From positions 32,001 to 96,000 of the IMG/VR virus record IMGVR_UViG_3300014911_000001: a stretch of DNA of 64,000 nucleotides; one strand, 5' to 3'. Shown here piece by piece: positions 33,402 through 42,203 of this stretch; the stretch's first letter is position 1; each line of letters begins with the position of its first letter. Source of the stretch: a virus. The notes beneath the pieces are model-generated. The model was not told where the DNA came from and did no database searches. It saw only the letters and a list, made by a program, of their open reading frames with translations. The translations under genes and the position numbers were made by a program.

Positions 33402-33749
33402 TTAGAATTTTATTATGATTACTTTCTTGCCTTTCTCTCTCATAACTCGTATCATATGCCGCGTCCCGGGGCTCTTTCCGTCCCAGAACGCGACAAGCAT
33501 GTCGGCTATCCGTGCCATTTTTTCATTCCTGCGATATCCTGCAGATTTCCCAAAGCGCTCCCAGTCCGCCGGATACACCTCCAACCTGAAGCCGCGCTCC
33601 CTCGCATACTTCTCGCCTAACCTGTCGGCTCCGCGAGCACCTCCTGATACTATGGTTATACCCGGGATGTTTCCAAGGATCTTGTCCAGCTCCTTCTTAA
33701 GCAGATTGTAATCGCTAAATGTCCTAGAGCCTGCGATTATTACCTTCAA
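33402..33749 (-). CDS. SLOG/YspA-like (DUF2493) protein
   Basis: IIAGSRTF, VSGGARGAD, ADW...GKSAG.RRN, AFWDGKSPGT. Confidence 0.85.
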   Translation of the reverse strand: MKVIIAGSRTFSDYNLLKKELDKILGNIPGITIVSGGARGADRLGEKYARERGFRLEVYPADWERFGKSAGYRRNEKMARIADMLVAFWDGKSPGTRHMIRVMREKGKKVIIIKF

Positions 33750-34030
33750 AATCCTGACCTCCTTATCTATTATAGTAGATTTTTATCTTTGCACTCCGTC
33801 CATATCTCCACCTCAATCTCCGCTTTAGCTCGTTTATATCCGCAGCAAAAATCTCATGGAGGCCGTCAGTTCTGACAAACCTCCATGATTTTATATTCCC
33901 CACGTAGGTTGGCTTTCCATTAGGGGCATATGTATGTAGTTTCTCCTTTGTCCTTACTGTTATAACATCAATGTCCTTCAGTAACGGGTAAAATTTCAAC
34001 GACATAAAACACCTCCTTTTTTAATGTGAA

Positions 34031-34081
34031 GCCCGCCATTAAATCGAAGCGCGCAACCCGGCGGGCTTAGGTCGCGCGCTT
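34031..34081 (-). promoter_or_regulatory. 5' leader H-type pseudoknot (PK-h)
   Basis: Stem AAGCGCGCGACC/GGUUGCGCGCUU; loop UAA-GCCCGCC pairs with downstream GGCGGGC; RBS of 34005 follows. Confidence 0.7.
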
Positions 34082-34088
34082 ACTTTTT

Positions 34089-34760
34089 TTATTCCACTTT
34101 ATTGACCCAGTCGGCTTTGGCATACGGCTTGCCGTTTATATACCACCTCTTCTCGGACGTTATGAGCACGGTTTCATAGCGCTCAAGTAGGTAATCGTTA
34201 CGCTCCCTTACCACGACAGCTTTAGGCTCAGGGATGATGGCATCGGTACCATGTGGAGGTGTGGGAGGGAAAATTGAAACGAGCTGACGTGGAAGGATGA
34301 CAAGAGAAAGGTGTTTGCCTTTCTGTTTGATGCGACTCCTGATGGTCTTCTCGAGACCCTTCTCGACGATTACGTAGCCATACGAATCCGCAGCCTCCTG
34401 GGCGAGTGTGTTCGCCATTTTATTCCCTGTTCTGGCTGTGTGTTTTACAATAACCTCCTTATGCTGGTTATCAGCGTAGTACCTAGCCAGCTCATATAAT
34501 TCCATAAGCTCAGGCTTCTTAATATCATATTCTTGGTTAAACTGCTTCACCACTAACTGTGAGTCGCTGTGTATTGTGGTATCACCCTGGATGTACTGGC
34601 TAATGTATGTCGCAAGAACTAGTGCTGCCCATTCAGCCTCGTTGTTTGTTGCCTCCCCAATGGGTATTGATAGTGATATACCAACCTCCGGAATATATAT
34701 CCCAATCCCAGCGGGACCGGGATTGCCTTTTGATGAGCCATCAATGTAAATGTTAGTCAT
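34089..34760 (-). CDS. rnhA: Ribonuclease HI family protein with C-terminal extension
   Basis: [36 protein letters not shown]. Confidence 0.85.
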
Positions 34761-34774
34761 AATACCTCCTTTAT

Positions 34775-35197
34775 TTATGGTTTAACTTTTCGTAAGCCGA
34801 GGCAACCTATCGGTCGTATGCTTCCACTGCTGGTCTTTTCATATACAGGATGAGCAATCGTGTATAACTTGTCTACGTTAGGTAGGTTGAGAGCAACTGC
34901 TGCAGAAGCATATTGATTACTAACAATTATTATATCAGCATCATCAGGGATGGGATCAATATCCTGTATCCTCTGTGTTATAACTGGGATCATAACCTCA
35001 CCGTTCACTGGACATTCGTAAAGGATGCTCGGAAGGAATTCGGTTTCATGGTGGACATTCAGAAGGATTCCGGAGGGTGGAATTATGGTAACTAGCTTGG
35101 TTTTTTCAGGCTCTATGAAGTATTTCCTGTGCTCACTTATGTAAACGGCGTCCTCAAAAATACATATCTCGTGAGGAGTGCAGTTTAAGATTTTCAT
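34775..35197 (-). CDS. Phage hypothetical protein (NxTPH type)
   Basis: [24 protein letters not shown]. Confidence 0.7.
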
Positions 35198-35219
35198 TAC
35201 ATACCTCCTTTTATTAGGC

Positions 35220-35279
35220 GGGCCTCATTACACCACCATGCAGAGCAGCAGGGCGAGGCCCTTAACCCTGAAGCTCTGC
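35220..35279 (-). promoter_or_regulatory. 5' leader pseudoknot (PK-g)
   Basis: Loop UAA-GGGCCUC pairs with GAGGCCC; RBS of 35197 follows. Confidence 0.7.
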
Positions 35280-35294
35280 GAAGAAAGAGAGCTA

Positions 35295-35627
35295 TTAGGA
35301 CAAGCGTTCTGCTTCCTGTCTAATCCGAACGGCATCCCTTACTACCTCTAACAGCGAAGGCGGTATAACCCTATTGTTCGAGGTTTTCCCAGTGCGCAAA
35401 TCAACTGCGACAGCACAATCATGCTCGTAAAAGTATACTATATCCCCATCCGGGAAGAATGTTCCATTAGCAGTAGCAACATTATAAATCAGATCGTTGG
35501 TGTATTCGCCGGGATCGCGATATGGTGTATAATGATCCTGAGCGTCCGGTGTTTCACAACCGGTAGTGCTTCTCACACATACATCACACCTGCCACTTCT
35601 ACACAGACGGCACTTATCAAATAACAT
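35295..35627 (-). CDS. Cys-rich hypothetical protein
   Basis: CxxC...CxxC N-terminus; RBS. Confidence 0.65.
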   Translation of the reverse strand: MLFDKCRLCRSGRCDVCVRSTTGCETPDAQDHYTPYRDPGEYTNDLIYNVATANGTFFPDGDIVYFYEHDCAVAVDLRTGKTSNNRVIPPSLLEVVRDAVRIRQEAERLS

Positions 35628-35654
35628 GATAACCTCCTTATTTTAATGTTTTAT

Positions 35655-35706
35655 GCCCGCCATTAACCAAGCCAGCAAGGACCGGCGGGCTTAGCCCTCA
35701 CTGACT
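35655..35706 (-). promoter_or_regulatory. 5' leader pseudoknot (PK-f)
   Basis: Loop UAA-GCCCGCC pairs with GGCGGGC; RBS of 35627 follows. Confidence 0.7.
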
Positions 35707-35726
35707 ATTAATTTCCAACTAATTGA

Positions 35727-36095
35727 CTACACAAGTGACGGGCCGAGGGCATCCTCTATTTTGGGACGCCCATACTCAACCTTCCACCCATTTTTAGGCG
35801 GAAGGTTGCGGACCCACCAGTCATACCACTGGCGGTCCATCACCTTTATAAGTTTGGATCGCTTGAAAAACACAGCGATCCACTTCCTTCTTCCCCCAGA
35901 ACGAGGGGAGAAAAACCATATAATCTCATTGGGTCGCACCTTGCCTGTTTTAACAAGATGCGACCACTGCGACCCAGTATTCACATTCTGGGCCGCTAAA
36001 ATAAACTCGTAATGGTTGCGCCACCTTTCGATGGCGCTCTCCCCGGATAACAACTTGGGGAGGTTGATTCTCAAGAAGTTAGTTAATGATAACAT
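35727..36095 (-). CDS. Hypothetical protein, paralog of 4362-4706; start trimmed to 36095
   Basis: GAGGAGG before ATG 36095; N-terminus matches paralog. Confidence 0.75.
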   Translation of the reverse strand: MLSLTNFLRINLPKLLSGESAIERWRNHYEFILAAQNVNTGSQWSHLVKTGKVRPNEIIWFFSPRSGGRRKWIAVFFKRSKLIKVMDRQWYDWWVRNLPPKNGWKVEYGRPKIEDALGPSLV

Positions 36096-36119
36096 AATAC
36101 ACCTCCTCTTTTGGAGGTT

Positions 36120-36175
36120 GCCTGCCACTTTTACCCACAGATAAGGCGAGGCCGGCAGGCTTAACCCCGCCTTAT
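36120..36175 (-). promoter_or_regulatory. 5' leader pseudoknot (PK-e)
   Basis: Stem AUAAGGCGGGGU/GCCUCGCCUUAU; loop UAA-GCCUGCC pairs with GGCAGGC. Confidence 0.7.
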
Positions 36176-36285
36176 CTTACTACTCCAGCTCATTGACTCC
36201 ATCACGAGCCAACAAGCCGGCCAAACCCTCCGTCACCCTCGCGGCACCGCTCCTCGCAGGCCGCACACAGGGGAGGAGGGCTTGG

Positions 36286-36353
36286 GGAGGCCTCTTAGAC
36301 CCTCTGTCGAGGGAGCTCCAGCGCCACGCCAAGGCGGGCCTCCAGTGCTGGAG
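36286..36353 (-). ncRNA. HDV-like ribozyme variant Rz1
   Basis: P1 CUCCAGC/GCUGGAG, P2 GGAGGCC/GGCCUCC, P3 GCC/GGC, L3 UUGGCGU, P4 CCCUC/GAGGG, J4/2 UCUAA. Confidence 0.8.
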
Positions 36354-36457
36354 TAGCCCCCGGCACGGGGGCTTCATTCTTTTTTCTCTCCACCTCCTTT
36401 CTAGCGGGATGAGCTAGCCCGGCCACCTAGCCCATCCCGCGGTTTAAGGTTTAACCT

Positions 36458-38857
36458 TTAATCGAGCTTCCAGAAGTTGAGCCAAAATTCGCGATCGGCA
36501 TTAGCAAGAGGATGAAGACCAGCAGGAGTTGTAATCCTAAGAAGCCGCGCGATTTCCCAGTTTCGCTTCCGACCAGTATGAAGTTCCACAAGAAATCTCA
36601 CATGAGATTCAAGTTCAGATTCGGTACCAGCAACAATTGCAAGGAAGTCGTTCTCAGCAACGGTAAGAGATTTCCAAGTGGTAAGAATTGCCTGAGGTTC
36701 AAACGCAGCAAGAAGTTTACGGAATCGCCGGTTGAGTCTCCGGAAGTTCCTAGTAAGAAGTATACGTAGCTCAGCAATCCTGCTGTTGAGGAAGCGCCTA
36801 CGCCGATCCAGTTCCCGTCTCCTATTTTTGAGGGTAGCCAGAGCATCGGATAGGGTATTAAGCCTAGGTAGCAGCCACTTTTCCATTTTCTGCCTCAGAA
36901 CTTCGTTTCTGATCCCAGATACTAGGAACCTGACTTTAGTTTCAGGTTTCGCATTAGCGAAGAGTCTCCGGCTCCGATTAACTACCGTATCAACCGCCGT
37001 CACTTTCTCCGCAAGAGCATTCACTTCATTTTCTATCTTCCGTATCCGAGAGAGCATCCGTCCAAACATGCGCCTCCTTATGCGATCCCACTTGAGGAAC
37101 AATGCCTTAACTTCTGGATCAATGGTGCCATCAGGAATAAGATCCTTAAGAGACCTAACTTCTGGCTCAGCAAACTTAACTTCAGGAATAAATTCAGCAA
37201 GAGGACCTGTCGGAGTTATGGCTGCTGGATCAGCTTTCGCGGTTCGGTTAGTGATCATTTGAGTAATAGTATCAAGCCTGGCAGTCGTACTCGCGAGTAG
37301 ATGCAGTCCCGCTTCTACCTCATGACGAAGCTCCGGTTCTTTACCATTAGCAAGATTCACCGCAGCTTGGAATAGCGCTCCAGCTTTCGCAATAAGATCC
37401 ACATTAATCTCAGTATCAGAAAGAAGCATCCTAGTGAAGCCAGCATCTGCCCGTGCGATCATCTCCTTCCCTAGCTCAATATTTTCCACTTCAGTACTAG
37501 GATCCATTCTCCACTTCCCGAAAGAGATTTCTTTTATCTTGCTTCGTATGCTATCGAAGAATTCCTTAGCAACAAGAGGCTCCTTGAAGACCTTGGATGC
37601 CGCGGCGAGAGCCACTTTGTCGCCATCGGCATCCCATCCGCTAGGCATATCTGCAGGGTGTACCAGAATCGCATGCGCACGATGGTCAACAATAATAGGA
37701 AGGATAAGAGTATCACCAGGCAAGATGGGCGACTTCTGTATGAGTAGGAGTTCTCCATCTTTCAGACCAAGCATACGTGCAATCACAGGAGGAATAACAG
37801 CAGTGCCGGGATGTGCATTCTGAAATCCCAGATAGAAGCCCGGGCCTAGTCTCAACTTCCGAAGTGCGATCTTTAAGTGGTCCAGAAGCACTCTCCGCAG
37901 GAAGCCTGCCTCCTTTATGAGGCCGAATTTCCGCAGAATATCAGCAGTCAGAGTCAGCACTGCACTAGGTTCATTGATCGGATCAGCGTTTTTAACAAGG
38001 ATATCAGCCGCTACCTCAGGATCAGAAAAACCATTAATAGCTTCAGCAATCTGCTCCTGAATCCGTTCAACAAACTCAGGCGCTGGATTAACATTCCATC
38101 CGAGTTTCCTTGGCAGAAGGAACCAGCGCGGCAGAGCTTGGCTGAGACTGATGCCACCCGCGAATACGGCACCAACCTCATGCAGCATGATGGTTCGCCC
38201 GAGTTCGAGTACGAAGCGCCGCCTCTTGATGAGTTTTGCGGTGTCAGCATCAGCGACGATATCAGTCCCTGTCTCTATCTCAGTAAGAACTTTATCAGCA
38301 AGAACCTCATCTCCCAGATACAACATCAGCCTCTGGAACCCGACTCTGCCGGGAAGAACTGGTACCGCTATCCCTTTCAGTCCAATAGCTGTAATCTTAA
38401 AACCACGTTTAATAAGAGCACGAGTTACCGCAGGGATATCAGCTTCTGTAGGAGCATGAGCACGCGCAACCAGCTCTGTAAACCTCTCGGACACGAAGAA
38501 AATTCCGTCTACACCCATTTTAGCATCGAGCTTGAGGCCGCGAACATCCACATTAGCCACTCGCTCAGGTTTAAAGTGCCAGCCCTTATTTGGGATCTCC
38601 GGAGTTGTCATCATCTGAATTCGCTTACCAGGAAGAGTTCTCAGATCAAATCCGTGATCGCCGAGGATATCTGCAATCACCTTATTAACCTTATCAATAG
38701 CAGAAGCAGGAACTACTCTAAAGACCCGACAATCAGGAACCATGGTTGGTTTCATTGGAAGATCAGAGTTCAGATCAGGATCAAATGCGAAGAAGACACT
38801 AGCACCAGCTTCAGCGAATAGAATAGCAAGAGGAGACTTCGGTATTCTTTCCATCAT
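36458..38857 (-). CDS. Putative single-subunit double-psi beta-barrel RNA polymerase (YonO / cellular RdRP-like architecture)
   Basis: Ordered motifs DGIFFVS, GLKG, QKSP, WDADGD; AAAGGAGGT before ATG at 38857/38854. Confidence 0.6.
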   Translation of the reverse strand: MMERIPKSPLAILFAEAGASVFFAFDPDLNSDLPMKPTMVPDCRVFRVVPASAIDKVNKVIADILGDHGFDLRTLPGKRIQMMTTPEIPNKGWHFKPERVANVDVRGLKLDAKMGVDGIFFVSERFTELVARAHAPTEADIPAVTRALIKRGFKITAIGLKGIAVPVLPGRVGFQRLMLYLGDEVLADKVLTEIETGTDIVADADTAKLIKRRRFVLELGRTIMLHEVGAVFAGGISLSQALPRWFLLPRKLGWNVNPAPEFVERIQEQIAEAINGFSDPEVAADILVKNADPINEPSAVLTLTADILRKFGLIKEAGFLRRVLLDHLKIALRKLRLGPGFYLGFQNAHPGTAVIPPVIARMLGLKDGELLLIQKSPILPGDTLILPIIVDHRAHAILVHPADMPSGWDADGDKVALAAASKVFKEPLVAKEFFDSIRSKIKEISFGKWRMDPSTEVENIELGKEMIARADAGFTRMLLSDTEINVDLIAKAGALFQAAVNLANGKEPELRHEVEAGLHLLASTTARLDTITQMITNRTAKADPAAITPTGPLAEFIPEVKFAEPEVRSLKDLIPDGTIDPEVKALFLKWDRIRRRMFGRMLSRIRKIENEVNALAEKVTAVDTVVNRSRRLFANAKPETKVRFLVSGIRNEVLRQKMEKWLLPRLNTLSDALATLKNRRRELDRRRRFLNSRIAELRILLTRNFRRLNRRFRKLLAAFEPQAILTTWKSLTVAENDFLAIVAGTESELESHVRFLVELHTGRKRNWEIARLLRITTPAGLHPLANADREFWLNFWKLD

Positions 38858-39018
38858 ATCACCTCCTTTCCGCCGCGGATTTCGTTGCCCTCGGTGCGGC
38901 ACTCCGAGGGTCGCCGGGCTTCGAGCGTCATTGGTGCCAAGGCTGGCCATAGAATGAAGCCCGGAAATTCCATGGCCATGGCCGGGCGCCTCAGCACCTC
39001 TGCCCTCTTTTTATCCAT
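38854..39018 (-). CDS. Putative 54-aa leader ORF coupled to the polymerase gene
   Basis: AAAGGAGGT before ATG 39018; its TGA overlaps the polymerase ATGATG. Confidence 0.4.
   Translation of the reverse strand: MDKKRAEVLRRPAMAMEFPGFILWPALAPMTLEARRPSECRTEGNEIRGGKEVI
38872..38910 (-). promoter_or_regulatory. 5' leader pseudoknot (PK-d) before polymerase RBS
   Basis: Stem CCCUCGG/CCGAGGG; loop GCCGC pairs with GCGGC next to the RBS. Confidence 0.55.
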
Positions 39019-39042
39019 TCTTTCTTACCTCCTTTATAAATA

Positions 39043-39121
39043 GAGGGACTCTTAGGCCCTTAGGCTATTGACCTAAGGGAGCCCCGGCGCCACGACAAGG
39101 CGGTCCCTCAAAAAGCCGGGG
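39043..39121 (-). ncRNA. HDV-like ribozyme variant Rz2
   Basis: P1 CCCCGGC/GCCGGGG, P2 GAGGGAC/GUCCCUC, P3 GCC/GGC, L3 UUGUCGU, P4 CCCUUAGG/CCUAAGGG, J4/2 CCUAA. Confidence 0.8.
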
Positions 39122-39589
39122 TTAACTCAATTTGACATCATTATTATCCTTCTCTTTCTTTATCCACTCTATCAATTCATCCACTAGGCGCTCCACATTA
39201 TAATCATCAATAATAAGAAGCGCCCTCCTGACCTTGTAGCCGAGCACCTCATGCGCTTTTAGCACATGCCTCGGCATCCAAGGCCAGGTCTCATTGTATC
39301 CCCCATTATATTTGATTTGGAGAAGGATTACCTCCTTCTTATGGGGGATACCAATGCTGACGTCGATTTTAAATACGACGTCAGCTTTACTCCCGATAGG
39401 ATAGTCTATTAATTTCCATCCCGCCGGAAGCTTGGAGGATAGTTCTTCAATGAATCTATCCTCCGCTTCGAAGCCAGCTCTATGCGCCTCATGTGCGATA
39501 GAGCTAACCTCGAAATCCGGGCGGATTATTTCATGACATTCCGCCCAGAATTTTCGCGCTATAGTGCGGGCATGCGTTTCCATATCCAT
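39122..39589 (-). CDS. Putative PD-(D/E)xK-fold nuclease
   Basis: GFEAE...KIDV...LLQIK spacing resembles the E...D...QxK variant. Confidence 0.4.
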   Translation of the reverse strand: MDMETHARTIARKFWAECHEIIRPDFEVSSIAHEAHRAGFEAEDRFIEELSSKLPAGWKLIDYPIGSKADVVFKIDVSIGIPHKKEVILLQIKYNGGYNETWPWMPRHVLKAHEVLGYKVRRALLIIDDYNVERLVDELIEWIKKEKDNNDVKLS

Positions 39590-39601
39590 GGTTGCCTCCT
39601 T

Positions 39602-40177
39602 TTACTCGACAAGAACATGATATATTCCATTTATTTTCTTTACTTTCCTTACTCTAAATAAACATTTATCCACAATTACTTCCTCTTCTTCACAATAAGG
39701 TTGCAAATTCAACAATCTCCCCTCTGCTTTAGTCATAAATACAACAGGAACTACATCAGGAAAATTATATCCTTCCCACAAATCCGGGTCATCAAACTCG
39801 TTATCATAACTTCTCTTTTTTCAAATTGCGAAGCGCTTTGCAACTGCATAACGCCTCGTCCAACTCATATTGATAGATATTTTCCTCCCTATCTGAGGGA
39901 TAGCATATACAACATCCCCTCTGAATAATAGTGATCTTACCTTAGGACACCCTAATAACGATATTTTTAAGGCGAGCTTAGAAATATAGATACCTCTCCC
40001 CTTCCACATTCTCAGCAAAGCGATCCTATTGTCTTTTGAAAATATCCCGCACAAAATTCTCAGCTTTTTCAATAACAGCTTGTATTTCATTTGGAGATGG
40101 TTCAGCTTTATTTCCCAACTCCTGTAAAAAACATTCCTTTTAGGATCTTTAATGAATAACGAAATGACCCACCACAT
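39602..40177 (-). pseudogene. ADP-ribosyltransferase-like gene interrupted by in-frame TGA at 39821-39823
   Basis: LFRG and SWT before the stop; frame stays open 72 more codons containing EEEVIV. Confidence 0.6.
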
Positions 40178-40192
40178 TGTTACACCTCCTTT

Positions 40193-40251
40193 TGCCCGTA
40201 TTAGTTTACCAAGGGCACCATCTGACCTGCGGGCATTGATCAGACGGTGCC
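40193..40251 (-). promoter_or_regulatory. 5' leader pseudoknot (PK-c)
   Basis: Stem GGCACCGUCUGAUC/GGUCAGAUGGUGCC; loop UGCCCG pairs with CGGGCA next to the RBS of 40177. Confidence 0.6.
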
Positions 40252-40320
40252 TATGTTACAAAACGGGCACCGTATAGTCATGGTAACAATACGGTGCCCT
40301 CACAACATCCCCTTTTATTA

Positions 40321-40396
40321 GGGTGCTCTTAGACCCTTAGGGATTGGACCTAAGGGAGCCCCTCCACCACGTCAAGGTGGCACCCTATCGGAGGGG
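40321..40396 (-). ncRNA. HDV-like ribozyme variant Rz3
   Basis: P1 CCCCUCC/GGAGGGG, P2 GGGUGC/GCACCC, P3 ACC/GGU, L3 UUGACGU, P4 CCCUUAGG/CCUAAGGG, J4/2 UCUAA. Confidence 0.8.
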
Positions 40397-40449
40397 TAGC
40401 AAGGCCATCATGTGAGGCCTTGCTTTGGCTTGGGCGGCACCTCATCATC

Positions 40450-40746
40450 TTACACATAAAAGCGATCCAACCCCTCAATATGAGGGGTTGTTTTGCTCTC
40501 CCTATCAACGATGTACAAGTTAGTCCCTATCCGAAATATGTCATGATACTTACACGCCTCCGGCTCCACAATAAGCTCTGCATCCTCAGGTATATATCCA
40601 ACCCATCCTTTGTACAAGCACCTCCGCACTAAGACATGAGTAAAACAGCTGGAATCAACAAGTGTAAGTCTATCATCATCATCATCGTAAATTCCGATAT
40701 ACCAGTAGTTATCTCTCACCAAGACTTTAATGACTTTTACCGCCAC
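40450..40746 (-). CDS. Hypothetical protein; GTG start at 40746
   Basis: AAAGGAGG upstream of GTG; the longer ORF start lies within RNA structure. Confidence 0.65.
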   Translation of the reverse strand: MAVKVIKVLVRDNYWYIGIYDDDDDRLTLVDSSCFTHVLVRRCLYKGWVGYIPEDAELIVEPEACKYHDIFRIGTNLYIVDRESKTTPHIEGLDRFYV

Positions 40747-40761
40747 GATAAACCTCCTTTC

Positions 40762-40820
40762 GCCGCACCTCAGTTCAGCCCCCGACACGCATGCGGTGCG
40801 GCATTTACATACGTGTCGGG
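40762..40820 (-). promoter_or_regulatory. 5' leader pseudoknot (PK-b)
   Basis: 14-bp stem; loop AAAU-GCCGCACC pairs with GGUGCGGC abutting the RBS. Confidence 0.7.
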
Positions 40821-40836
40821 ATGCCGCCCAAGCCAT

Positions 40837-40907
40837 CGGACGCTCTTAGACCTAGCCACAAGGCTAGGAGCCCCTCCACCACGTCAAGGTGGCGTCCGTC
40901 GGAGGGG
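40837..40907 (-). ncRNA. HDV-like ribozyme variant Rz4
   Basis: P1 CCCCUCC/GGAGGGG, P2 CGGACGC/GCGUCCG, P3 ACC/GGU, L3 UUGACGU, P4 CCUAGC/GCUAGG, J4/2 UCUAA. Confidence 0.8.
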
Positions 40908-40956
40908 TAGCAAGGCCATGCGAGACCTTGCTTTGTCTGCGGGGGCACCATGAATA

Positions 40957-41190
40957 TTATAACTCTGATGGACGGGGCCTCTGTAACGATTCAAAATATA
41001 GCGATAAAGCCTCCATGAATGTCACAGGAATCCCTTTTTTCTTATACTGGAATGGAGGCGCCGGAACATTACCCAGCACCTCCTTTGTTATTTTTATTGC
41101 AATGTAACCTCTAAGTTCCTTAAACCGGTATGTCTTGATTTCACCATTATTATAAATGGTGATAGCATTCACGTTTTTTGACATCCTCAT
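40957..41190 (-). CDS. Small hypothetical protein
   Basis: GGAGG RBS; sits inside RNA cassette. Confidence 0.65.
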   Translation of the reverse strand: MRMSKNVNAITIYNNGEIKTYRFKELRGYIAIKITKEVLGNVPAPPFQYKKKGIPVTFMEALSLYFESLQRPRPSEL

Positions 41191-41206
41191 TTTATCCTCC
41201 TTTTTC

Positions 41207-41266
41207 GCCGCGCCTTGGTTCTACGCCCAGCATGTACGCGGCGCGGCATTTACGCACATGCTGGGC
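41207..41266 (-). promoter_or_regulatory. 5' leader pseudoknot (PK-a)
   Basis: 15-bp stem; loop AAAU-GCCGCGCC pairs with GGCGCGGC next to the RBS. Confidence 0.7.
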
Positions 41267-41759
41267 TGGCGCCCCCGCAATCCCCTATTAGCCGAGGAAG
41301 CAAATCAAAAATCAAGGGGGCAGGGGGGTCGAAATACAATCCGACCCCCTCAAAATCCACAATAGAGACCTCCTGAATTTTTTGCCGATTTCTTGACCCT
41401 TATGGACCTCCCTGTAGACTCATTCCGACGGGGTACCTTGCGGCATAGGGAGGTGTTCTATGAGGTTGTTGGTTGGACTGGATATGGGCTTGTGATGGTT
41501 ATTGTGTTAGGGTCTGGGGGGTGTGGGACCTCTTGTGGGCTTGTTTGTGACTATGTGGGTTGGTGTGGGCTACCCCTTTTCGACCCTATGGGTCTGCTCT
41601 CTATAAGGCTTCCTGCTTCAGCGAGGGATAGCTAGGCTTATGTGAAGCCCCCGCCAGAGCCCTCTCCACAGGCATAAGTTCGGGCCGCCCCGGCCCTACC
41701 ACCCGTGAGGTGGGTGAGCCCATTTTTTGTGATGTATGTTGTGTGTATGTTAGCATTTT

Positions 41760-42203
41760 TTATATACCTGTGCTACCGAATCCATTTTGGTTGCGTGTTG
41801 TGGGTGTTACATCATTGACAGGTTCGAATTCGCATGGATGTATTCGTGATATTATTATTTGGGCTATTCTATCGCCGTCTTTTATGGTAATGTTTTTGTT
41901 ACCGAGGTTGATGAGGATGACCATTATTTCGCCTCTGTAGTCGCTATCTATGGTTCCTGGTGAGTTAAGGACCGTTAGTCCGTGTCTGAGTGCTAGTCCA
42001 CTTCTTGGGCGGATTTGTGCTTCGTAGTTGTTGGGTAGTTCTAGTATGAAGCCGGCCGGTATGGCTTTATATTCACCCGGGTGTAGTGTTATGGGTTTTT
42101 GGAGTCTTGCGAAGATGTCGTAGCCTGCTGAACCCGGGGTCATTTTTCTTGGCATTGTACCGCCGGGCAGAAGTTTTAGTTTGATTTTATTAGTGTTACT
42201 CAT
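41760..42203 (-). CDS. dut: Trimeric dUTPase (probable start MSNTNK)
   Basis: AGYD, RSG, GTIDSDYRGE, RIAQ, RNQNGFGSTG. Confidence 0.93.
   Translation of the reverse strand: MSNTNKIKLKLLPGGTMPRKMTPGSAGYDIFARLQKPITLHPGEYKAIPAGFILELPNNYEAQIRPRSGLALRHGLTVLNSPGTIDSDYRGEIMVILINLGNKNITIKDGDRIAQIIISRIHPCEFEPVNDVTPTTRNQNGFGSTGI

Follow-up and report, generated by a model that had tools for sequence, protein, structure and literature searches.

A very rare family of single-chain two-barrel polymerases in a phage genome, probably a non-virion RNA polymerase for middle genes

Introduction

Single-chain two-barrel RNA polymerases (RNAPs) are rare enzymes, investigated as potential relics of the form ancestral to every cellular RNA polymerase. 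To our knowledge only a few have been characterized, namely YonO, QDE-1, the crAss-like gp66, and gp64 and gp96 of phage P23-45. Here we ask whether a further one is encoded in a 64,000-nucleotide stretch of viral DNA (the window), and what such an enzyme would do. The window comprises bases 32001-96000 of the virus record IMGVR_UViG_3300014911_000001, which is 175,796 bp long and is rated complete by CheckV. A first-pass annotation, made from the letters of the window, had proposed that a gene of about 800 codons encodes a divergent single-subunit RNA polymerase bracketed by ribozymes. DNA sequencing runs sharing parts of the window come from hydrothermal-vent, sediment, and marine metagenomes.

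We found, with high confidence, that the gene product is a two-barrel nucleotide polymerase of a new and very rare family. We place this family as a new branch among the single-chain phage RNA polymerases already known, rather than as a new kind of enzyme. The enzyme is probably the phage's own non-virion DNA-dependent RNA polymerase, acting on middle genes.

A very rare family with the catalytic residues of two-barrel polymerases

Searched exhaustively with HMMER, a set of 1.84 billion cluster representatives yielded no more than three clusters, and a profile search of a 5.8-billion set found no further members. Pattern scans added one viral contig and six metagenome loci, and found no relative in the prokaryotic genomes of 185,579 species. 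The family therefore comprises three lineages in 15 billion proteins. The first lineage is of the window type, with proteins that are 78-90% identical (P0002-P0004; loci L002-L005 and L018-L021). Proteins of the second lineage are 784-786 aa long and ~30% identical to the window protein (P0006; L022-L024). The third lineage is one protein of 1,109 aa that is 33% identical to the window protein (P0005; L001). In the alignment of the six known members, identities range from 30 to 89%. Compared with two relatives, the polymerase gene has a ratio of nonsynonymous to synonymous substitution rates (dN/dS) of 0.10-0.17 at synonymous divergences (dS) of 0.34-0.93; judged from these rates, it is under purifying selection and functional.

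The first-pass annotation had read four motifs, DGIFFVS, GLKG, QKSP, and DADGD, in the order expected for two double-psi beta barrels (DPBBs) in one chain (Table 1). The order is as claimed, and all four motifs are invariant or nearly so across the six members. Eight residues are reported to be common to all two-barrel polymerases: D837, K979, and K987 of Rpb2, and R446, P448, and three Asp residues of Rpb1 (PMC2919709). Their equivalents in QDE-1 are D709, R738, K743, R962, P964, and D1007/1009/1011 (PMC2919709). The family-invariant residues D117, K154, K161, K375, P377, D409, D411, and D413 occur in the same order and with comparable spacing. In the superfamily a basic-x-Pro sequence (R446-x-P448 in Rpb1, R962-x-P964 in QDE-1) precedes the Asp loop by about 30-45 residues; here it is present as the invariant K375-S-P377, with Lys for Arg, 32 residues before D409.

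The DADGD loop lies in a barrel of the RNA polymerase type

We modeled the protein with AlphaFold2 from the six-sequence alignment. The overall predicted local distance difference test score (pLDDT) was 46, and residues 337-444, which contain the DADGD loop, were the sole confidently modeled globular part. In a search of 48,161 solved chains that was independent of Foldseek, the largest subunits of RNAPs ranked first for this barrel. The top match was human Pol I A190 (Z 11.7, 107 residues), and the next matches were archaeal RpoA', Pol IV, Pol II, the RNAPs of African swine fever virus and vaccinia, the AR9 phage RNAP, and P23-45 gp96. A second look at Foldseek's 1,000 best chains gave the same picture: the best 50 listed were, without exception, active-site barrels of RNAP largest subunits (VIA-align; Z 11.2-11.9, 99-111 aligned residues, root-mean-square deviation 2.5-3.0). 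Among these best 50 was yeast Rpb1 347-517, which carries R446, P448, and D481-485. Generic double-psi barrels, such as the VCP N-domain and designed barrels, aligned over ~80 residues with lower Z. Given the matches to Rpb1, A190, and RpoA' and the invariant DADGD, residues 337-444 form a beta-prime-type barrel with a DxDxD loop, as in the polymerase superfamily. When the whole model was compared by Foldseek, no chain matched at E<=0.001.

A predicted structure that lacked double-psi barrels would have told against the first-pass annotation; such a barrel is present at residues 337-444. Of the two barrels that had been placed in one chain, the one with DADGD stands on its match to RNAPs, and the first remains a candidate, modeled with pLDDT of 30-40. 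The candidate for this first, beta-like barrel is a block of motifs (D117-G, F-K154, and L-K161-G162) whose order and spacing resemble those of D837, K979, and K987 in Rpb2 and of D709, R738, and K743 in QDE-1 (PMC2919709), in which the two basic residues are 5-8 positions apart.

Beyond the DADGD barrel, two helices (residues 453-479 and 486-503) carry the invariant patterns GK..IA..D...TR and Q......NGK. The long Arg-rich helical tail noticed earlier was also recovered in the model, as predicted helices at residues 581-629 and 652-717 with pLDDT 60-83. These tail helices are poorly conserved in the distant lineages.

Distant links to known RNA polymerases

Among the 30 ESM Atlas clusters nearest to the whole protein in a language-model comparison, 24 carried the RNA-dependent RNA polymerase (RdRP) family PF05183. 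For residues 60-335 alone, the family was carried by 18 of 30. The PF05183 model itself stayed below the Pfam cut-off, with no match to the protein at E<=1 and none on the genome at E<=10. This model also found nothing on the SPbeta or P23-45 genomes; in the genome of Bacillus subtilis, used as a control, it gave a match below threshold, presumably to YonO.

We also searched the SPbeta and P23-45 genomes with the family profile. The sole match was to residues 719-788 of gp96, inside the crystallized polymerase. With hhalign, the segment from QKSP to DADGD paired with FRNP...DFDGD of gp96 and with NRRP...DYDGD of gp64. The gp64 alignment continued for ~90 more residues and ran, at low probability, through the stretch of helices at 453-503. 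It had E=0.0027 and a probability of 11% with the single sequence, and E=0.05 and 1% with the five-member family profile, so the similarity to the gp64-type family is not significant. No alignment to YonO was obtained. Such weak matches fit the published remark that single-chain RNAP families share little beyond the region of the Asp loop (PMC10770324).

A promoter-like word downstream of the polymerase gene

We found a 24-nt word, GTCAAT-N3-RYGR-N-AAAAAC, in nine copies, eight by regular expression and the ninth by eye, where 0.12 were expected. Every copy is on the minus strand and closely precedes a ribosome site, at a distance of 6-101 nt from the start codon that follows, and the copies are confined to the region downstream of the polymerase gene (window positions 5231-34106). 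The word is absent from minus-strand genes upstream of the polymerase and from the late plus-strand block. Two relatives have five copies each, again only downstream of their polymerase (L002, 13869-19388; L018, 10757-13971). The conserved parts of the word are ~11 nt apart, which is the wrong spacing for a sigma-70 promoter. Counting of k-mers in upstream regions returned ribosome sites and a GC-run word only. A polymerase gene that comes first, with its promoters after it, is the arrangement of T7-like and P23-45-like programs. The confinement of the word to the region downstream of the polymerase gene is the main reason why we prefer a transcriptase role.

A proposed role in middle transcription

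The barrel fold around DADGD, the counterparts of the eight residues, the language-model neighbors, the weak P23-45 matches, and the promoter-like word support the first annotation of the protein as a single-chain two-barrel phage transcriptase. In the mechanism that we propose, the two barrels would face each other, D409, D411, and D413 together with D117 would hold two Mg ions, and K154, K161, and K375 would hold the incoming nucleoside triphosphate and the RNA 3' end. The helices that follow this barrel region would form the bridge helix and the base of the trigger loop, and the Arg-rich helices would form a clamp. The polymerase would be made early, from a transcript trimmed on both sides by folds like the ribozyme of hepatitis delta virus (HDV). 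It would then start at GTCAAT-N3-RYGR-N-AAAAAC and switch on the middle (replication-type) genes. The products of two partner genes described below, RNase H and domain X, would probably deal with RNA:DNA hybrids left by so minimal a polymerase.

The proposed system resembles that of phage P23-45, which uses an injected RNAP and the non-virion gp64 (PMC10770324). The protein gp64 (gp62 in P74-26), whose partner gp96 is the virion RNAP, is likewise a single chain of 600-800 aa from a hot-habitat phage (PMC10770324). In both systems the DxDGD loop is preceded by a basic-x-Pro sequence and the gene is encoded among early genes, and gp64 reads its own promoter, for which the word described above is the candidate here. 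The present genome also encodes a giant tail-module protein with a DxDxD-like loop, as a possible parallel to gp96. Unlike in our family, the R-x-P of gp64 has Arg, and its promoters are GC-rich, whereas the candidate word is AT-rich. The Arg-rich coiled tail, the RNase H, domain X, and SLOG partners, and the ribozyme flanks are peculiar to the present family. YonO of the Bacillus prophage SPbeta is also a single chain, of 839 aa, with RNAP homology confined to a few catalytic residues (PMC5467207), and it serves the phage as a transcriptase of its own for some of the genes (PMC5467207), the role proposed here. QDE-1 and the eukaryotic RdRPs of RNA interference (PF05183) share the motif order of Asp, two basic residues, basic-x-Pro, and DxDGD (PMC2919709); they differ in that the PF05183 model does not score the present protein.

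The giant protein has 2,353 aa (genome 130481-137542, plus strand; L010:481-7542), with GDWDTD at residue 1802. It had no Pfam or PHROG match, and BLASTP found no similarity between it and the 799-aa polymerase. It is a possible injected polymerase.

Several points weigh against the transcriptase role. Sequence methods gave no significant match to any characterized RNAP: matches to Pfam, PHROGs, and PDB sequences were at chance level for both the single protein and the family profile, a tblastn search of 50,697 phage records returned nothing similar to the polymerase, and the hhalign probabilities were 1-13%. For the region of the first barrel, the full-length model reached a pLDDT of ~30, and a model made of the N-terminal 301 residues on their own reached 39.5. 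The Lys at K375 in place of Arg is the single departure from the eight invariant residues, and the Asn of NADFDGD is Gly in this family (the residue before the Asp loop is Ala in gp64 and Val in gp96 in the hhalign alignments). In cellular RNAPs, as known from the bacterial enzyme, these Arg and Asn residues are linked with the recognition of ribose; a Gly at the position preceding the loop may be typical of RdRP-type single-chain RNAPs. These two replacements prevent us from deducing the preferred sugar and template from the sequence. What ties the word to the enzyme is purely its position; the word could also be read by the giant protein or by a host RNAP acting with a factor from the phage. 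No RNA run was found among the runs searched for the window sequence. Finally, a tight link to RNase H is not a feature of phage transcriptases as far as we know, and we know of none reported for YonO.

The family is compact (~800 aa) and probably thermostable, and the candidate promoter in the same genome would make it a ready-made test system. The family also breaks one of eight supposedly universal residues. We know of no described phage transcriptase that is inherited with an RNase H, as this one is in all three lineages; this co-inheritance points to an unexplored way of handling RNA:DNA hybrids.

RNase H partners and a possible role in priming

The phage carries genes for a family-B DNA polymerase, a DnaG-DnaB primase-helicase, ribonucleotide reductase, ligase, terminase, and portal. 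No other recognizable RNA polymerase was found among the recognized genes. We considered the polymerase gene as the phage's DNA polymerase or primase and rejected this, because both are encoded elsewhere in the genome. With the family-B polymerase and DnaG-DnaB already identified, it is the role of a phage RNAP, if there is one, that the recognized genes leave unfilled.

An RNase H accompanies the polymerase in all three lineages. In the window its gene lies four genes downstream, and P0005 carries it as a domain joined to the C-terminus of the polymerase. In L023 and L024 the polymerase gene is directly flanked on its upstream side by a gene for a 257-aa RNase H protein and on its downstream side by one for a SLOG/DprA-like protein. 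Identities among the RNase H domains of these lineages are 27-36%, a divergence similar to that of the polymerases. Because the genes are linked across lineages and RNase H has diverged in step, the polymerase, domain X, and RNase H form, on these comparisons, one co-inherited module. By eye, the RNase H of the window seems to have Asn for the usual last catalytic Asp (ANTLA versus ADxLA) and a 95-aa C-terminal extension. The fused domain of P0005 retains this Asp.

This module favors the main rival to the transcriptase role, in which the polymerase acts in replication priming or in another hybrid-making role with RNase H. In the priming version, the enzyme would lay down RNA on phage DNA, as R-loops or long primers, and RNase H would trim it to 3' ends for the family-B polymerase. 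The origins of ColE1, T7, and mitochondria are primed by RNA that is trimmed to 3' ends. The arrangement and parallel divergence of RNase H, the shared domain X, the DprA/SLOG-like gene nearby in two lineages, and the position of the polymerase gene amid replication and nucleotide-metabolism genes all speak for priming. However, the phage has its own DnaG-type primase-helicase, and a word placed directly before the ribosome sites of nine genes fits the synthesis of messenger RNA better than the priming of an origin. Phage replication modules also often carry RNase H for other reasons. We therefore regard priming as unlikely.

It is also quite unlikely that the RNase H-coupled polymerase, instead of being an ordinary transcriptase, has RNA:DNA hybrids as its working product, either as R-loop primers for phage replication or by copying its ribozyme-trimmed RNA into the other type of nucleic acid. 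If it did, Lys for Arg and Gly for Asn would reflect an altered choice of substrate or template.

HDV-like folds around the gene and the question of RNA templates

The first-pass annotation had placed ribozymes on both sides of the gene. A descriptor search of the genome found one fold in four copies; each lies on the minus strand, and their P3 stems start at 36335, 39101, 40378, and 40890. Each copy has a P1 of 7 bp, a P2 of 7 bp, a P3 of 3 bp, the loop UUGNCGU, a variable P4, and CUAAGA before P2'. Over nine distinct copies from the window, L018, and L002, 98.4% of the cells were paired, compared with at most 55% in slid controls, and 12 of 21 pairs were changed on both sides. By this covariation the two flanking folds are real, and their cleavage is predicted. 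A nested double pseudoknot with C in J4/2 makes the folds HDV-like. The two copies that bracket the polymerase are retained in relatives. A fifth copy with different P1 and P2 sequences is present in L018. A search for the loop did not find the folds in the distant lineages (L001 and L022-L024).

The folds share the nested double pseudoknot, a 7-nt L3 of the form U..NCG., and C-U-A-A in J4/2, at the place of the catalytic C, with HDV-like ribozymes (HDV, CPEB3, R2). They also share with the 5' ribozymes of R2 retrotransposons a position at the 5' edge of a coding unit. Their L3 sequence is close to the UUCACGU of CPEB3. They differ from canonical members, which have a G-U wobble as the first pair, a non-inverted P1.1, and Rfam models: here the first P1 pair is C-G in all copies, P1.1 has a single good pair in reversed orientation, with its G in L3 and its C following P1, and cleavage is predicted. 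Rfam gave nothing at gathering score in the window and no HDV-type match at E<=1 in 34000-42000. The messenger of the polymerase would thus be bounded by HDV-like folds of a non-canonical type, with predicted excision. The only Rfam match at E<=1 in 34000-42000 was a weak RAGATH-18-like one, below gathering score (41610-41672, minus strand; 29.3 bits, E=0.025); it falls within 500 nt of non-coding sequence that follow the dUTPase gene.

The ribozyme flanks had been taken as a reason to consider RNA-templated activity, in which transcripts trimmed by the ribozymes would serve the enzyme as templates, much as RNA does for QDE-1 or HDV RNA for Pol II. The RdRP family of the nearest language-model neighbors points the same way, and QKSPxLPGD...DxDGD appears to resemble the signature of cellular RdRPs. 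There is also the precedent of QDE-1, which has both DNA- and RNA-templated activities (PMC9508822). The argument from ribozymes is weakened by two points: the other copies of the fold frame unrelated small genes, and L001 and L022-L024 lack the folds. In addition, the copies are on the coding strand only, with no antisense set for rolling-circle copying, and YonO, which shows a similar kind of resemblance, is DNA-dependent (PMC5467207). RNA-templated synthesis is therefore very unlikely.

Between the upstream fold and the polymerase gene lies a leader with a small open reading frame (ORF). The last ~110 nt of the leader (38854-38965) are 100% identical in L002, where the polymerase has a dS of 0.69. 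The leader is therefore constrained as RNA, whether or not it is translated. The same ~110 nt are also 100% identical in L018, L020, and L021 despite divergence of the coding sequence. A hairpin in the leader has the loop UGCCGC, which is able to pair with a GCGGC directly ahead of the ribosome site, and like elements are found at 41203-41282 and 40758-40837.

Improbable alternatives: DNA synthesis or loss of activity

We consider it highly improbable that the protein is a DNA-synthesizing two-barrel enzyme, either PolD-like or a functional analog of reverse transcriptase, that acts together with its RNase H on hybrids of RNA and DNA. A polymerase-RNase H fusion, as found in P0005, is the classic layout of a reverse transcriptase, and the replacements of Arg by Lys at K375 and of Asn by Gly before the first Asp would suit such an enzyme. 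PolD shows that the fold can make DNA (PMC4996933, PMC7708050). However, the best fold matches are RNAP subunits, PolD is outside the best 50, and the phage has a complete family-B polymerase.

Least credible of all is an inert or non-polymerase protein that keeps a double-psi barrel: one barrel is seen and such barrels occur in unrelated proteins (VCP N-domains, formate dehydrogenases), but RNAP barrels align over ~105 residues with Z 11-12, against ~80 residues for generic barrels, and all catalytic-type residues are invariant under a dN/dS of ~0.1.

Gene boundaries, composition, and minor observations

The ORF of about 800 codons is real, with 799 aa in the window and 800-810 aa in homologs. 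An automatic ORF listing offered a longer version that starts with ATG at 38950. This start is unlikely, because the close homologs are all 800-810 aa long and a strong AGGAGGTG precedes the ATGATG at 38857. In L021:339-2824 a metagenome copy of the gene is split over two frames of 498 aa and 330 aa, by a frameshift or an assembly error.

The gene had also been described as GC-rich and poor in Tyr and Cys compared with its neighbors, and the counts agree. Its GC content is 0.486, at the 98th percentile of the genome's 104 ORFs of at least 150 aa (genome median 0.393). Tyr makes up 0.24% of its residues, the lowest value among these ORFs (median 5.7%), and the protein contains a single Cys. The distant polymerase relatives are Tyr-poor as well (1.1-2.4%). 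The GC content at third codon positions (GC3) is 0.43, below the 0.5-0.6 of neighboring genes, so the GC excess comes from the use of Ala, Leu, and Arg and not from foreign codon usage. On the same ground we rejected an imported GC-rich insert.

Table 1 Positions of the polymerase gene, its motifs and domains, and associated features in the window.
Feature	Residues	Window position	Strand	Remarks
Polymerase gene, 799 aa		36458..38857	-	ATGATG start at 38857 behind AGGAGGTG; stop 36458-36460
DGIFFVS	117-123	38489-38509	-	
GLKG	159-162	38372-38383	-	
Candidate beta-like barrel (DPBB-B), motif block D117-G, F-K154, L-K161-G162		38372..38509	-	invariant in six members
Beta-prime-like catalytic barrel (DPBB-A)	337-444	37526..37849	-	pLDDT 57-83 by 10-residue block
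QKSP	374-377	37727-37738	-	K375-x-P377, counterpart of Rpb1 R446-x-P448, Lys for Arg
DADGD, predicted metal-binding loop (D409, D411, D413)	409-413	37619-37633	-	invariant in family
Long Arg-rich helices, probable clamp or nucleic-acid-binding tail	581-717	36707..37117	-	predicted model
Promoter-like word, first copy		34083..34106	-	upstream of nine genes in all
Promoter-like word, site starts		34106, 32166, 31410, 30690, 27355, 25632, 19826, 10705, 5231	-	
RNase H gene, 223 aa		34089..34760	-	Pfam RNase_H 1.8e-11; four genes downstream of polymerase
Partner domain X protein		35727..36095	-	BLASTP E=3e-9
SLOG/YspA-type protein		33402..33749	-	SLOG also beside polymerase in L023, L024
HDV-like fold B		39043..39121	-	predicted cleavage directly after TAA (39122-39124) of upstream 155-aa gene
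HDV-like fold A		36286..36353	-	~105 nt after polymerase stop
Two further fold copies		40320-40396, 40837-40907	-	frame ~98-aa and 77-aa ORFs
GC-rich hairpin		36404..36440	-	just past polymerase stop; identical in L002
Leader with 54-codon small ORF		38854..39018	-	overlaps polymerase start (ATGA)

A 660-aa ligase of the phage (window 27372-29354, minus strand) has an N-terminal LigD-type 3'-phosphoesterase domain, which could in principle process the cyclic-phosphate ends left by ribozyme cleavage. The terminase large subunit (L008:6351-8897; genome 100351-102897, plus strand) has internal matches of the Hint/intein type.

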